A stretch of 7,884 nt of DNA from a virus (Duplodnaviria > Heunggongvirae > Uroviricota > Caudoviricetes), in IMG/VR virus record IMGVR_UViG_2734482594_000006; one strand, written 5' to 3'. Made by a program: the position numbers and the translations under genes. Below, one piece after another: positions 3,376-7,884 of the stretch (position 1 is its first letter; the number at the start of each line of letters is the position of its first letter). Below the pieces are notes generated by a model that worked only from the letters and a program-made list of their open reading frames with translations, was not told where the DNA came from and made no database searches.

Positions 3376-3980
3376 ATGGCTAAACGCGTTACAAAATTAA
3401 AGGCCGCAGCCGAGGCGGCACCGCAGACCCGGGAAGAAGTCAGCCGTGATATCCGCACCCTGGGAGATATTCAGCGAGAGGCGCTGCGCCTGGAAACGGC
3501 GATGAATGACGAAGTGGCAGAAATCACCGCCCGTTATACGCCGCAGATTGAAAATCTTAAAAAGCAAATCAAAGTGCTTTTTAAAGGGATTCAGGNNNNN
3601 NNNNNNNNNNNNNNNNNNNNNNNNNNNNNNNNNNNNNNNNNNNNNNNNNNNNNNNNNNNNNNNNNNNNNNNNNNNNNNNNNNNNNNNNNNNNNNNNNNNN
3701 NNNNNNNNNNNNNNNNNNNNNNNNNNNNNNNNNNNNNNNNNNNNNNNNNNNNNNNNNNNNNNNNNNNNNNNNNNNNNNNNNNNNNNNNNNNNNNNNNNNN
3801 NNNNNNNNNNNNNNNNNNNNNNNNNNNNNNNNNNNNNNNNNNNNNNNNNNNNNNNNNNNNNNNNNNNNNNNNNNNNNNNNNNNNNNNNNNNNNNNNNNNN
3901 NNNNNNNNNNNAAGGTGAATAAAGGCGCTGAAAGTTTTTATGTCGAGCCTTTTGAACAGGACGCCGGACTGAATAAATAA
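3376..3980 (+). CDS. gam: Gam-like host-nuclease inhibitor (Ku-like DNA-end-binding protein); 5' part is secure, 3' boundary uncertain because of mask 3596-3911 and a frame change across it
   Basis: N-terminus MAKRVTKLKAAAEAAPQTREEVSRDIRTLGDIQREALRLETAMNDEVAEITARY matches my recollection of Mu Gam; AAGGA 8 nt upstream of ATG 3376. After the mask, a different frame reads KVNKGAESFYVEPFEQDAGLNK then TAA at 3978-3980, which resembles a Gam C-terminus as I remember it. Confidence 0.7.
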
Positions 3981-4464: not shown

Positions 4465-4760
4465 NNNNNNNNNNNNNNNNNNNNNNNNNNNNNNNNNNNN
4501 NNNNNNNNNNNNNNNNNNNNNNNNNNNNNNNNNNNNNNNNNNNNNNNNNNNNNNNNNNNNNNNNNNNNNNNNNNNNNNNNNNNNNNNNNNNNNNNNNNNN
4601 NNNNNNNNNNNNNNNNNNNNNNNNNNNNNNNNNNNNNNNNNNNNNNNNNNNNNNNNNNNNNNNNNNNNNNNNNNNNNNNNNNNNNNNNNNNNNNNNNNNN
4701 NNNNNNNNNNNNNNNNNNNNNNNNNNNNNNNNNNNNNNNNNNNNNNNNNNNNNNNNNNNN

Positions 4761-5225
4761 CAGCAGGACTGCCAGAAAGTTAAGGATGAGGCAAAACGCC
4801 TTGAGGCCGTGCTGAATGTTGCGTGCCGGTCGGTATTTGTATCCGGTATCAGTGGATTTTACTTTAAGGGACTGCGTTTTACGGAGGACAAATATCCTTT
4901 TCATCGCGACTTATGGCGAAAACCGACTGCGTCGAATGGCTGGAGCTGCACACCGCGCACATCACGTATCCCTAAAACCCTGCGTGTTGCCTCTGATGAA
5001 CTGAACAGTCTGTGGCGTGAATATTCGCCCGTCACGTATGCCAGAACCGATGCGCTGTTGTTCTGGTTGGGTATTGATTTCTCGGCAATCCTGTTTGGCC
5101 CTGTGAAGTGGTTCTGCGTTGACGATGTGATTTACCTTCAGTGCGGCGTAAAACCCGCAAAACAGAAAATGACCGAAATACTGTCTGATGAGTTTTATGC
5201 TGCTGAAAAGCGAGTCAGGGGGTGA
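4761..5225 (+). CDS. Hypothetical protein, C-terminal 154 aa visible; 5' end masked; may or may not be the same gene as 4126-4464
   Basis: Frame 0 is open from the mask edge to TGA 5223-5225 (QQDCQKVKDEAKRLEAVLNV...AAEKRVRG). The GTG at 4809 in the ORF track is internal. The frame differs from that of 4126-4464. Confidence 0.5.
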   Translation, partial: QQDCQKVKDEAKRLEAVLNVACRSVFVSGISGFYFKGLRFTEDKYPFHRDLWRKPTASNGWSCTPRTSRIPKTLRVASDELNSLWREYSPVTYARTDALLFWLGIDFSAILFGPVKWFCVDDVIYLQCGVKPAKQKMTEILSDEFYAAEKRVRG

Positions 5226-5228
5226 TGC

Positions 5229-6146
5229 ATGATGAAATTACAACCCATGGGACTAAAAGGTCGCGCCCCCGCTCATGTCCGTCCGTGGACACCTGAAGAA
5301 GATGCGCTGCTGATTGCGCTTTATTCATCCACCCCGGTTAAGGATATTGCTGCCAGAATAAAAAGAACTGTCTGGGCTGTATATAACCGGACTGGTGTAT
5401 TGCGCAGTTCATACCCGGAGTTACTGAAATATAAACACCCAAGATTTACACCTGATGAAGATAAGTTTATTCGAAAAAATGCCAGAACAATGACCTGCCA
5501 GCAAATGGGAGAATATCTCGGACGTAATAAAGATTCTGTCAGATGTCGGGCAGGAATGATTGGTGCTGGATTAACAAAGTGCGGAGAGTTACGCCCCGGC
5601 ACGCGCATATCTGATGATGATGTACGTCTTATACGTGAGCTGCGTGATTCCGATTACCCACGCCGTCTGTCATTCCGGGAAATTGGCGAAAAGTTTGGAA
5701 TATCTGAACATTCTGCTCACGCAGTTTATTACCGTCGCCGGACTGCCGAGGACGCTGTATTACGGGAGTTAACGNNNNNNNNNNNNNNNNNNNNNNNNNN
5801 NNNNNNNNNNNNNNNNNNNNNNNNNNNNNNNNNNNNNNNNNNNNNNNNNNNNNNNNNNNNNNNNNNNNNNNNNNNNNNNNNNNNNNNNNNNNNNNNNNNN
5901 NNNNNNNNNNNNNNNNNNNNNNNNNNNNNNNNNNNNNNNNNNNNNNNNNNNNNNNNNNNNNNNNNNNNNNNNNNNNNNNNNNNNNNNNNNNNNNNNNNNN
6001 NNNNNNNNNNNNNNNNNNNNNNNNNNNNNNNNNNNNNNNNNNNNNNNNNNNNNNNNNNNNNNNNNNNNGAAGATGAGGACGGACAGGTGACGCACTGGTG
6101 CCATCTTTCGGCCTTGCCGGAATTACAGGGGATACATAATGGATGA
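5229..6146 (+). CDS. Putative DNA-binding protein with three tandem SANT/Myb-like helix-turn-helix repeats; the visible 182 aa plus the 25-aa C-terminal piece are in the same frame across mask 5775-6068
   Basis: ATG 5229 with AGGGGGTGA upstream. Repeats: about 5286-5402 (WTPEEDALLIALY...IAARIKRTVWAVYNR), 5445-5564 (FTPDEDKFI...MGEYLGRNKDSVRCR) and 5604-5741 (DDDVRLIREL...SFREIGEKFGISEHSAHAVYYRR), spaced about 53 aa apart. Stop TGA at 6144-6146. Confidence 0.55.
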   Translation: MMKLQPMGLKGRAPAHVRPWTPEEDALLIALYSSTPVKDIAARIKRTVWAVYNRTGVLRSSYPELLKYKHPRFTPDEDKFIRKNARTMTCQQMGEYLGRNKDSVRCRAGMIGAGLTKCGELRPGTRISDDDVRLIRELRDSDYPRRLSFREIGEKFGISEHSAHAVYYRRRTAEDAVLRELTXXXXXXXXXXXXXXXXXXXXXXXXXXXXXXXXXXXXXXXXXXXXXXXXXXXXXXXXXXXXXXXXXXXXXXXXXXXXXXXXXXXXXXXXXXXXXXXXXXEDEDGQVTHWCHLSALPELQGIHNG

Positions 6147-6282
6147 GCAAATTGTTGAATGTCCCACCTGTGGAAATGAGGACCCGGAGTATCTGAAAGA
6201 GTGCCCACATTGTGGTGAGATAAAATGTAACCACTGCGATATGGGCGACGACACTGCATGTATAAATTGTGAGGATGAATAA
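6139..6282 (+). CDS. 47-aa acidic zinc-ribbon protein with four CxxC motifs; absent from the supplied ORF track
   Basis: ATG 6139 is the first start codon after the in-frame stop at 6088-6090, with GGGG 8 nt upstream. Product MDEQIVECPTCGNEDPEYLKECPHCGEIKCNHCDMGDDTACINCEDE. It overlaps the end of the upstream gene by 8 nt (ATGGATGA). Stop TAA at 6280-6282. Confidence 0.5.
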   Translation: MDEQIVECPTCGNEDPEYLKECPHCGEIKCNHCDMGDDTACINCEDE

Positions 6283-6283
6283 T

Positions 6284-6571
6284 ATGGAAAAAGAAATCAA
6301 ATTTGCGCCTAAATCTATCGACGAAGAACTGGCTAAAATCGGCATGCTTGAACGTATGCGGGACATTATCGAATATGCGATAAAAGAAAATCTTGCAGCC
6401 AGAGAAGCCCTTTTGATAATGGAGCGGGAGATTAACCTGATTAAGGATGCTGTATCTCTGGATAATAAAATAGCCCGCGAGGAATACGTTCGCCGTAGGC
6501 TCGGTGTTGATGGTTCAGCAATTCTTACATCTGAACATTATGCAAAAATTTTTAATCTTTTTCAGCGGTAA
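6284..6571 (+). CDS. Hypothetical 95-aa protein in AT-rich DNA
   Basis: ATG 6284 lies 1 nt after the zinc-ribbon stop, with GAGG(A) about 9 nt upstream. Product MEKEIKFAPKSIDEELAKIGMLERMRDIIEYAIKENLAAREALL... has no domain I recognise. A sampled 60-nt stretch is about 38% G+C, against about 63% in a 60-nt sample from B. Confidence 0.5.
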   Translation: MEKEIKFAPKSIDEELAKIGMLERMRDIIEYAIKENLAAREALLIMEREINLIKDAVSLDNKIAREEYVRRRLGVDGSAILTSEHYAKIFNLFQR

Positions 6572-6791
6572 TCCCCATACAGGCCCGGAGATTGTCGAAA
6601 TGCCAGTCGGTATTAATATATGAGCCATCCTGGATATCTTCTGCATTTTCCGGGGTAGAGTTTTTTTGAGCGAGATTGATAATATGTATTGCCTCCTCAC
6701 GGGAAATCAGCCCCTTATCGAACAGGGTTACCATAAGATTTCCAGCCATTGTGAATGCGGCAACATCAAGTGCATTTTTTATATCTGACAT
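6552..6791 (-). CDS. Hypothetical 79-aa protein, the only minus-strand ORF I consider plausible
   Basis: ATG is the complement of 6789-6791, with AAGGA about 8-10 nt upstream on the minus strand. It is the only ORF of 60 aa or more on either strand across 6572-6861 and overlaps the 3' end of 6284-6571 by 20 nt. No recognisable domain. Confidence 0.4.
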   Translation of the reverse strand: MSDIKNALDVAAFTMAGNLMVTLFDKGLISREEAIHIINLAQKNSTPENAEDIQDGSYINTDWHFDNLRACMGITAEKD

Positions 6792-6820
6792 AGATTTTTC
6801 CTTTTATGTTAATTGACATG

Positions 6821-6847
6821 GCGGTGCGGTAACACCGCCCATTTTTT
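6821..6847 (+). terminator. Candidate rho-independent terminator for + strand transcription
   Basis: 7-bp G+C-rich stem GGCGGTG (6821-6827) pairing with CACCGCC (6834-6840), loop CGGTAA, followed by C then TTTTTT (6842-6847). On the minus strand the run would be A's ahead of the stem, so it is directional. It ends 14 nt before the gemA-like ATG. Confidence 0.45.
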
Positions 6848-6861
6848 ATGGAGCCACGATA

Positions 6862-7256
6862 ATGAATCGCGCTTCCCTGATTACCTTAATACATGTCGCA
6901 AAACGCGATCTACAGCTTGACCATGATACCTATACATCCGCGCTGCTGNNNNNNNNNNNNNNNNNNNNNNNNNNNNNNNNNNNNNNNNNNNNNNNNNNNN
7001 NNNNNNNNNNNNNNNNNNNNNNNNNNNNNNNNNNNNNNNNNNNNNNNNNNNNNNNNNNNNNNNNNNNNNNNNNNNNNNNNNNNNNNNNNNNNNNNNNNNN
7101 NNNNNNNNNNNNNNNNNNNNNNNNNNNNNNNNNNNNNNNNNNNNNNNNNNNNNNNNNNNNNNNNNNNNNNNNNNNNNNNNNNNNNNNNNNNNNNNNNNCT
7201 AACTGGCAGTGGCTGGAGCAACAACCCGCGCTGGCCTCTGATGTGCTGGAGCGTCT
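6862..7256 (+). CDS. gemA: GemA-like (Mu gp16 family) early regulatory protein; internal mask 6949-7198, 3' end inside the mask that begins at 7257
   Basis: ATG 6862 with GGAG 8 nt upstream. N-terminus MNRASLITLIHVAKRDLQLDHDTYTSALL resembles the conserved N-terminus of GemA/DUF1018 proteins as I remember them. The same frame is open in the visible island 7199-7256 (NWQWLEQQPALASDVLERL). Confidence 0.55.
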
Positions 7257-7884
7257 NNNNNNNNNNNNNNNNNNNNNNNNNNNNNNNNNNNNNNNNNNNN
7301 NNNNNNNNNNNNNNNNNNNNNNNNNNNNNNNNNNNNNNNNNNNNNNNNNNNNNNNNNNNNNNNNNNNNNNNNNNNNNNNNNNNNNNNNNNNNNNNNNNNN
7401 NNNNNNNNNNNNNNNNNNNNNNNNNNNNNNNNNNNNNNNNNNNNNNNNNNNNNNNNNNNNNNNNNNNNNNNNNNNNNNNNNNNNNNNNNNNNNNNNNNNN
7501 NNNNNNNNNNNNNNNNNNNNNNNNNNNNNNNNNNNNNNNNNNNNNNNNNNNNNNNNNNNNNNNNNNNNNNNNNNNNNGNNNNNNNNNNNNNNNNNNNNNN
7601 NNNNNNNNNNNNNNNNNNNNNNNNNNNNNNNNNNNNNNNNNNNNNNNNNNNNNNNNNNNNNNNNNNNNNNNNNNNNNNNNNNNNNNNNNNNNNNNNNNNN
7701 NNNNNNNNNNNNNNNNNNNNNNNNNNNNNNNNNNNNNNNNNNNNNNNNNNNNNNNNNNNNNNNNNNNNNNNNNNNNNNNNNNNNNNNNNNNNNNNNNNNN
7801 NNNNNNNNNNNNNNNNNNNNNNNNNNNNNNNNNNNNNNNNNNNNNNNNNNNNNNNNNNNNNNNNNCGCCACTACCAGATGTCAG

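Follow-up and report, generated by a model that had tools for sequence, protein, structure and literature searches.

An early gene of a Mu-like Escherichia coli prophage encodes a probable DNA-binding protein of three helix-turn-helix units, remotely related to phage T5 D5

The closest described relative of the gene considered here is D5 of the virulent bacteriophage T5 (T5.118, YP_006946.1, 255 aa). The T5 genome record describes D5 as a DNA-binding protein that both DNA replication and late transcription require and that has a part in the shutoff of earlier expression; its primary reference, as listed in PMC12630848, is McCorquodale et al. (J Virol 1979). The gene itself occupies positions 5229 to 5780 of a 7,884-nucleotide (nt) stretch of tailed-phage DNA, IMG/VR record IMGVR_UViG_2734482594_000006 (the window, meaning the whole stretch analysed), and its product, WP_000977059.1, is a protein of 183 amino acids (aa) with three predicted helix-turn-helix (HTH) units. 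Other systems also invite comparison. Cbp1, the CRISPR-repeat binder of Sulfolobus (2lvs), is likewise a small protein consisting solely of three imperfect, linker-joined HTH repeats, and as a monomer it binds an extended site on DNA; however, it is archaeal and has another biological role, and the weak similarity may reflect the shared tandem-HTH plan alone. Eukaryotic R2R3 Myb proteins (c-Myb, 1h88/1mse; B-Myb, 1a5j; WER, 6kks) differ from WP_000977059.1, which conserves the first of the three Myb tryptophans alone, scores below the Pfam threshold, has a third domain that is not Myb and, as a bacterial-virus protein, lacks a transactivation domain. GcrA of Caulobacter (5yiu) pairs a single N-terminal DNA-binding domain with a C-terminal domain that binds sigma-70, and it recognises methylated GANTC, whereas the phage protein has three HTH units.

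The window, in all its visible blocks, matches E. coli strain 600029 (NZ_CM128582.1) at 100% identity, and the RefSeq annotation of that record describes the early region of a Mu-like prophage. This locus, L002, served as the reference for all mask-length and boundary checks, and L002 coordinates are positions in the locus taken from that record. Its gene order starts with a repressor, a Ner-like HTH protein, the Mu transposase (MuA), an AAA ATPase (MuB), several small open reading frames (ORFs) and Gam, continues with hypothetical proteins of 177 and 171 aa and then WP_000977059.1, and goes on with a 110-aa product, an unannotated 47-aa ORF with a probable zinc ribbon, a 95-aa product, a reverse-strand 79-aa ORF, gp16/GemA, Mor and lysozyme. 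The gene therefore belongs to the accessory section of the early operon, between gam and gemA/mor, in agreement with an earlier note made from the window sequence alone, which had called it a phage early protein. The same note was right that the protein is not Mor, which is a separate gene (L002 9609-10031) downstream of gp16/GemA; no Pfam or NCBIfam Mor match was found for WP_000977059.1. The Mor and C activators of Mu are also small HTH proteins of Mu-like phages and control the temporal programme; Mor differs in being a dimer with a single C-terminal HTH rather than a tandem array.

WP_000977059.1 is already known as a database entry: RefSeq names it "SANT/Myb-like DNA-binding domain-containing protein", the label that the earlier note also chose, and PHROGs groups it with T5 D5. 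Literature searches on the protein and its accession turned up no paper. It falls in PHROG 323, "transcriptional regulator, D5-like" (E 5.3e-53, profile positions 80-256 of 319), to which T5 D5 itself belongs (E 1.2e-71). When the family profile was aligned directly with D5 by hhalign, the match extended over all three units (probability 96.4%, E 1.1e-9, 147 columns, D5 residues 71-232). The units follow one another in the same order in both proteins, with WTPE..., FTPDE... and a third HTH containing ...EIAEK.G.S..., and both are early-expressed phage proteins. D5 differs in an extra 70-80 N-terminal residues and a longer tail, neither of which has a counterpart in WP_000977059.1, and it comes from a virulent phage that has an early-to-late switch of its own, while WP_000977059.1 is found in temperate Mu-like and P2-like phages that already have Mor/C or Ogr-type activators. 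The D5 link provides a concrete, testable hypothesis for an accessory early gene carried by about 4% of complete E. coli genomes. We put at roughly 70% the probability that this gene encodes an early DNA-binding triple-HTH protein that modulates transcription and/or replication in lytic development. That it is a DNA-binding tandem-HTH protein at all is very probable; that its role is transcriptional regulation is about an even call.

In T5 itself, the "replication origin binding" protein T5.108 (L058 4546-7332) is annotated with InterPro IPR001005, which we take to be the SANT/Myb domain entry; if so, T5 has a second Myb-like protein beside D5.

The protein has a mass of 21 kDa and is all-helical and basic (isoelectric point, pI, 9.88). 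An AlphaFold2 model built on the family alignment, with a mean predicted local distance difference test (pLDDT) score of 84.6, contains three three-helix bundles (residues 22-59, 75-110 and 129-169), with a C-terminal helix (173-181) following the unit 3 bundle, and no beta strands. The coding sequence and its parts are as follows.

5229..5780, + strand: true coding sequence of the 183-aa triple-HTH protein WP_000977059.1, by identity to L002 7430-7981
5229..5276, + strand: N-terminal residues 1-16, with the family-conserved L-x-P-M-G-x-P-G-x-C-P-A-H; residues 1-12 have pLDDT < 50 and are predicted to be disordered
5277..5435, + strand: unit 1, residues 17-69, a predicted Myb/SANT-like three-helix bundle with helices 22-32, 37-43 and 48-59
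5436..5594, + strand: unit 2, residues 70-122, a predicted Myb-like three-helix bundle with helices 75-84, 90-97 and 101-110, homologous to unit 1
5595..5777, + strand: unit 3, residues 123-183, a predicted divergent HTH of sigma-70 region 4/AsnC-HTH/HTH_10 type with helices 129-140, 149-156 and 160-169

The repeat motif recurs at residues 20 (WTPEED), 73 (FTPDED) and 127 (ISDDDV), 53 and 54 aa apart, and in unit 1 residues W20, R46, R54 and L58 are invariant in the alignment of the close family. Profiles of the single units, made from 22 homologues, leave little doubt about the first two, which align with a probability of 98% (hhalign, E 2e-13, 43 columns). Unit 3 matches unit 1 and unit 2 weakly in the same comparison (E 4e-3 and 1e-3, probability 9-22%). 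Smith-Waterman alignment of the single sequence against 2000 shuffles gave a modest similarity between units 1 and 2 (z 3.2, 23/2000) and between units 2 and 3 (z 2.7, 48/2000), and none that was significant between units 1 and 3. Thus, of the three tandem repeats about 53 aa apart that the earlier note described, the spacing and the three predicted bundles stand, but the third unit is only weakly similar to the others: as judged from profile comparison and the predicted structure, the architecture is two homologous repeats followed by a third, different HTH.

Two parts outside the bundles are also conserved. The N-terminal peptide is conserved although predicted to be disordered, and in the linker before unit 3 residues K117, G119 and D129 are invariant across 25 diverse members, more so than most HTH residues (window 5229-5276 and 5577-5615). 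It is possible that the peptide and the linker residues are interaction or DNA minor-groove elements.

The nature of the units was assessed with Pfam and with the structures in the PDB. Taken alone, WP_000977059.1 scores 19.7-20.7 bits against Myb_DNA-binding, where the gathering threshold is 24.4, and it also has sub-threshold matches to HTH_AsnC-type, HTH_10 and Sigma70_r4; the HTH_AsnC-type match, in unit 3, has an E of 1.2e-3. In the family of 22, Myb_DNA-binding was matched in 17 members at E <= 0.01 (best E 6e-9), which makes the family recognisable overall, and HTH_AsnC-type and Sigma70_r4 each matched unit 3 in 16 (best E 8e-8 and 9.5e-8, respectively). When the family profile was searched against all PDB sequences, the top match was c-Myb R1R2R3 (1h88_C, E 1.2e-6), with residues 18-106 aligned to 60-150, so that units 1 and 2 are in register with c-Myb R2 and R3 and unit 2 is aligned to R3. 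Further matches were B-Myb (E 1e-4) and Cbp1 (2lvs, E 5e-4), whereas a phmmer search of the PDB with the single sequence gave marginal matches only. A whole-chain Foldseek search against the PDB was also weak, with Cbp1 2lvs on top (E 0.04), because the domains are loosely arranged in the model (predicted template modelling score, pTM, 0.57).

Measured against what defines a Myb domain (PF00249/PF13921), units 1 and 2 are predicted bundles of about 50 aa in which helices 2 and 3 form the HTH, and they repeat in tandem with a period of about 52 aa, alignable with R2-R3. They lack the three tryptophans spaced 18-19 residues apart, the gathering threshold is not reached, and unit 3 is not a Myb repeat. 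From these sequence comparisons, "Myb/SANT-like" is a fair description of units 1 and 2, and unit 3 is best described as a sigma-70 region 4/AsnC-type HTH. The Myb/SANT signature proposed in the earlier note therefore holds for two of its three units, and the name "SANT/Myb-like" is two-thirds right, whereas "AsnC family protein", the RefSeq name of close relatives, is misleading. NCBIfam returned nothing meaningful for WP_000977059.1 or its neighbours.

By analogy with proteins of known binding mode, a mechanism can be outlined. The gene would be transcribed within the early operon of the Mu-like prophage, and the three bundles would bind double-stranded DNA (dsDNA), with the third helix of each in successive major grooves, as in c-Myb R2R3, in Cbp1 and in the bipartite Tc3/Pax domains. 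A single monomer could in this way span a long, asymmetric piece of dsDNA, and this binding, if T5 D5 is a guide, may tune transcription and/or replication, of the phage or the host, in the course of lytic growth. Several observations weigh against such a reading. The only characterised relative is T5 D5, from which a dsDNA-binding role is carried over to WP_000977059.1 by analogy, and the homology is remote, of low identity and without the 70-80 N-terminal residues of D5, so that the function may differ. The protein itself scores under the Pfam Myb gathering threshold, and of the three canonical Myb tryptophans it retains just the first (W20 is invariant; position 73 is F or W). Moreover, the pTM of 0.57 means that the relative arrangement of the domains in the model is undefined. 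Lastly, some SANT domains bind proteins such as histone tails, so the fold alone is no proof of DNA binding.

Tandem arrays of these units turned out to be widespread, contrary to the earlier note, which had thought them uncommon in phage proteins; PHROG 323 itself and the searches described here say otherwise. A word-indexed search gave 27 clusters, those with a named source coming from Escherichia and Salmonella. An exhaustive profile search gave 12,865 representative clusters at E <= 1e-3, many of them with 5-9 tandem copies, and 161 at E <= 1e-30. About 20 of the top 150 clusters from the profile search are 170-216 aa long and have the full three-unit plan (named sources: Klebsiella/Raoultella, Hafniaceae and Salmonella), and separate searches added Citrobacter members of the three-unit family. 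Most other clusters in the top 150 are proteins of 300-1500 aa in which the unit 1-2 pair is repeated up to nine times, and one multi-repeat protein, from Propionibacteriaceae, carries the name SANT/Myb-like. Among viral structures in BFVD, 30 match at E <= 1e-3, including several paralogues of the jumbo phage Goslar, phage endonucleases, a 107-aa two-unit protein of Klebsiella phage LASTA and one entry annotated as Mor (E 1.2e-4). A profile search of genome contigs found nothing with the close family and one locus, in Citrobacter murliniae, with a more diverse alignment. Judged by sequence similarity, then, such arrays are common in phages and bacteria and behave as a portable DNA-binding module.

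Two by-products of these searches can be recorded here. The bacterial proteins P0029, P0031, P0039 and P0080 (300-800 aa, for example from a Propionibacteriaceae metagenome-assembled genome) consist almost entirely of 5-15 tandem WTxEED...LGRT...R...LG units; proteins of the P0029 type form a class of poly-Myb/GcrA-like repeat proteins that is very large and essentially uncharacterised. In Mycobacterium phage Bombitas, gp109 (L056 2004-3431, 475 aa), annotated as a DNA methyltransferase, has an embedded unit 1-2 pair that is 35% identical over about 100 aa. Its C5 methylase profile match is confined to residues 1-180; the next gene, gp110, is a second methyltransferase fragment, and sister phages carry an HNH endonuclease annotation at this locus. 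The appearance is that of a methylase gene that a mobile DNA-binding/endonuclease module has split or become fused to.

The Bombitas gene is also a point in favour of the first alternative to consider, namely that WP_000977059.1 is not a transcription regulator but brings a neighbouring activity to its DNA target: a nuclease, a modification enzyme, or the 171-aa or 110-aa protein encoded beside it. The weak matches of WP_000977059.1 to HNH and other endonuclease PHROGs and the phage endonucleases among the BFVD matches point the same way, as does the gene neighbourhood. In all 45 Mu-like loci, the 171-aa ORF (PHROG 2314) lies 7 nt upstream of the gene, even where identity is only 50-60%, and the two may be a functional gene pair. 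In P2-like phages the orthologues, 38-47% identical, are flanked by the integrase/C/Cox end on one side and the gpA nickase on the other; 6 of 7 such loci encode a Dam-like, D12-class N6-adenine methyltransferase just upstream (about 0-600 nt in L046-L051). In one of these (L050) the orthologue is also upstream of a PAPS-reductase-like gene. However, the neighbours differ from one setting to the other: downstream genes vary among the 45 Mu-like loci, no homologue of the 171-aa ORF is present in the P2-like loci examined, no methyltransferase lies beside the gene in the Mu-like loci, and Citrobacter phage Shae_phiSM (L003) carries the gene but not the methyltransferase. In addition, both adjacencies are weak evidence because these phages are syntenic relatives rather than independent cases, WP_000977059.1 has no catalytic domain, and T5 D5 acts alone as a DNA-binding protein. 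The unit 1-2 pairs inside methyltransferase and HNH genes, together with the weak endonuclease matches, fit a generic DNA-binding module. A dedicated partner role is thus unlikely, and regulation of transcription and/or replication through DNA binding remains our preferred explanation.

A second alternative is that the protein acts on RNA polymerase or another host protein instead of DNA, for example as a mimic or appropriator of sigma-70 region 4 that redirects host transcription or as a SANT-type module for host takeover or counter-defence. Unit 3 would suit such a role, since Sigma70_r4 and Sigma70_r4_2 are matched in 16 of the 22 family members and T5 D5 matches Sigma70_r4_2 above threshold. 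Eukaryotic SANT domains often bind proteins, the PMGxPGxCPAH peptide and the invariant K117, G119 and D129 resemble interaction motifs, and the gene lies in the accessory early region, where Mu keeps its host-directed functions. Against this, sigma region 4 is a DNA-binding HTH in its own right, and any HTH of its class should give such matches. The protein has a strongly basic pI, its best sequence and structure matches are to DNA-bound Myb, GcrA and Tc3 domains, and PADLOC found no match for it or for its six neighbours. On balance, a primary role in protein binding is quite unlikely.

A more specific idea is that the protein is a hitherto unrecognised timing or host-directed regulator common to Mu-like and P2-like temperate phages of Enterobacterales, which would help to switch the phage programme or silence host genes and whose PMGxPGxCPAH peptide would contact a host protein. 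In one form of this idea, suggested by the closest structural match together with the Dam-type methyltransferase beside the gene in P2-like phages, it would be a GcrA-like reader of DNA methylation or replication state. No Pfam GcrA match (PF07750) was found in WP_000977059.1 or its family, and no GcrA C-domain is present. Taken as a joint claim, this idea is improbable. A CcrM-like nature of the methyltransferase next to the P2-like orthologues would have favoured the GcrA comparison, but it was checked and rejected: the enzyme is of the ordinary Dam-like D12 class that P2-like early operons typically carry. A D5-like DNA-binding protein is an ordinary finding, and interest would rise only if a specific regulatory target or a host-directed role were shown. 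Some interest attaches to the conserved disordered N-terminal peptide, the linker residues and the presence of the gene in two unrelated temperate phage types.

The RefSeq name of relatives that are 57-74% identical would make the protein an AsnC/Lrp-family regulator. Apart from the name, this reading has the HTH_AsnC-type matches in unit 3 in its favour. But these involve a 42-residue HTH profile alone, the C-terminal ligand-binding (RAM) domain is absent, AsnC_trans_reg is found in 0 of the 22 members, and the 183 aa are filled by three helical bundles without beta strands, which makes membership of that family highly implausible.

There is practically no chance that the gene is instead a 305-aa early protein (5229-6146, the gene model of the earlier note) whose Myb-like repeats are joined to an effector domain hidden under the mask at 5775-6068, a possibility that the note had raised. 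The sole point in favour is an apparently open frame across that mask, whereas L002 has a TGA after residue 183, the hidden stretch is 257 nt rather than the 294 nt masked, the query of 1801 nt corresponds to 1764 nt in each of the 14 near-full-length E. coli matches, full-length homologues are all 178-187 aa, and the remainder belongs to a family of its own, PHROG 6925. The note had itself named a stop dividing the ORF as refuting evidence, and for this part of its reading such a stop is present in L002. The visible 182 aa, as quoted in that note, were confirmed by translation of the + strand ORF opened by the ATG at 5229, and the ORF finder reported 305 aa only because Ns translate to X. In L002 the gene ends ...AVLRELTP-TGA, with the stop one codon past the start of the mask, and is followed by a separate 110-aa ORF in another frame, 333 nt in real length (L002 7978-8310) and matching PHROG 6925 with E 2e-51. 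Its ATG overlaps the preceding stop as ATGA, and the visible 6069-6146 are its last 25 codons and stop. The 305-aa protein, with its supposed hidden effector domain, is an artefact of the masking. The features at the gene boundaries are listed below.

5217..5222, + strand: Shine-Dalgarno-like AGGGGG, 6 nt 5' of the start codon, read from sequence
5223-5225, + strand: stop TGA of the upstream 171-aa ORF, between the Shine-Dalgarno-like element and the ATG at 5229
5775-5777 and 5778-5780, + strand: last codon (Pro183) and TGA, under the mask, deduced from the 100%-identical L002
5777..6146, + strand: separate downstream 110-aa ORF (PHROG 6925), its length in the window distorted by the mask

A 95-aa reverse-strand ORF beneath the gene (5321-5608) was also considered and judged non-coding; the + strand product is conserved across phage types at identities from 36% to 100%.

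The same problem affects the rest of the window, which has eight N-masks, each differing in length from the stretch it hides (range -9 to +100 nt against L002). Window minus real length, relative to L002, is as follows.

857-1120: -4 nt
2099-2383: +36 nt
3596-3911: +74 nt
4465-4760: +51 nt
5775-6068: +37 nt
6949-7198: -9 nt
7257-7865: +100 nt

Because the mask lengths are arbitrary, reading frames cannot be carried across them, and ORFs that span N-masks of the window should not be trusted. A second product of this kind is the "644-aa" ORF at 53-1987, a mask-made fusion of the Mu transposase C-terminus and a separate MuB-like AAA ATPase.

As for its expression, the genes are tightly packed on the + strand, and WP_000977059.1 is coupled to the 110-aa ORF through ATGA. 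No sigma-70-like promoter was found upstream of the gene, which therefore appears to be read within the early operon; a terminator-like hairpin occurs only farther along, ahead of gemA. Its neighbours in the window are given here.

4710-5225, + strand: 171-aa ORF (PHROG 2314), start under a mask (L002 6911-7426), with no Pfam or NCBIfam match
6139-6282, + strand: 47-aa ORF with CxxC pairs C8/C11, C22/C25, C30/C33 and C41/C44 (PHROG 5584, E 3e-26)
6552-6791, - strand: 79-aa ORF that interrupts the otherwise + strand early operon
6820-6839, + strand: strong terminator-like hairpin (L002 8984-9003) with a 7-bp stem, 6 G-C pairs and a T-run, directly before gp16/gemA

The 47-aa ORF, which overlaps the stop of the 110-aa ORF by 8 nt and is missing from the annotation of the RefSeq record, is probably a double zinc ribbon. 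The position of the hairpin suggests that the early transcript may end there, and that gemA and mor may be read from another promoter.

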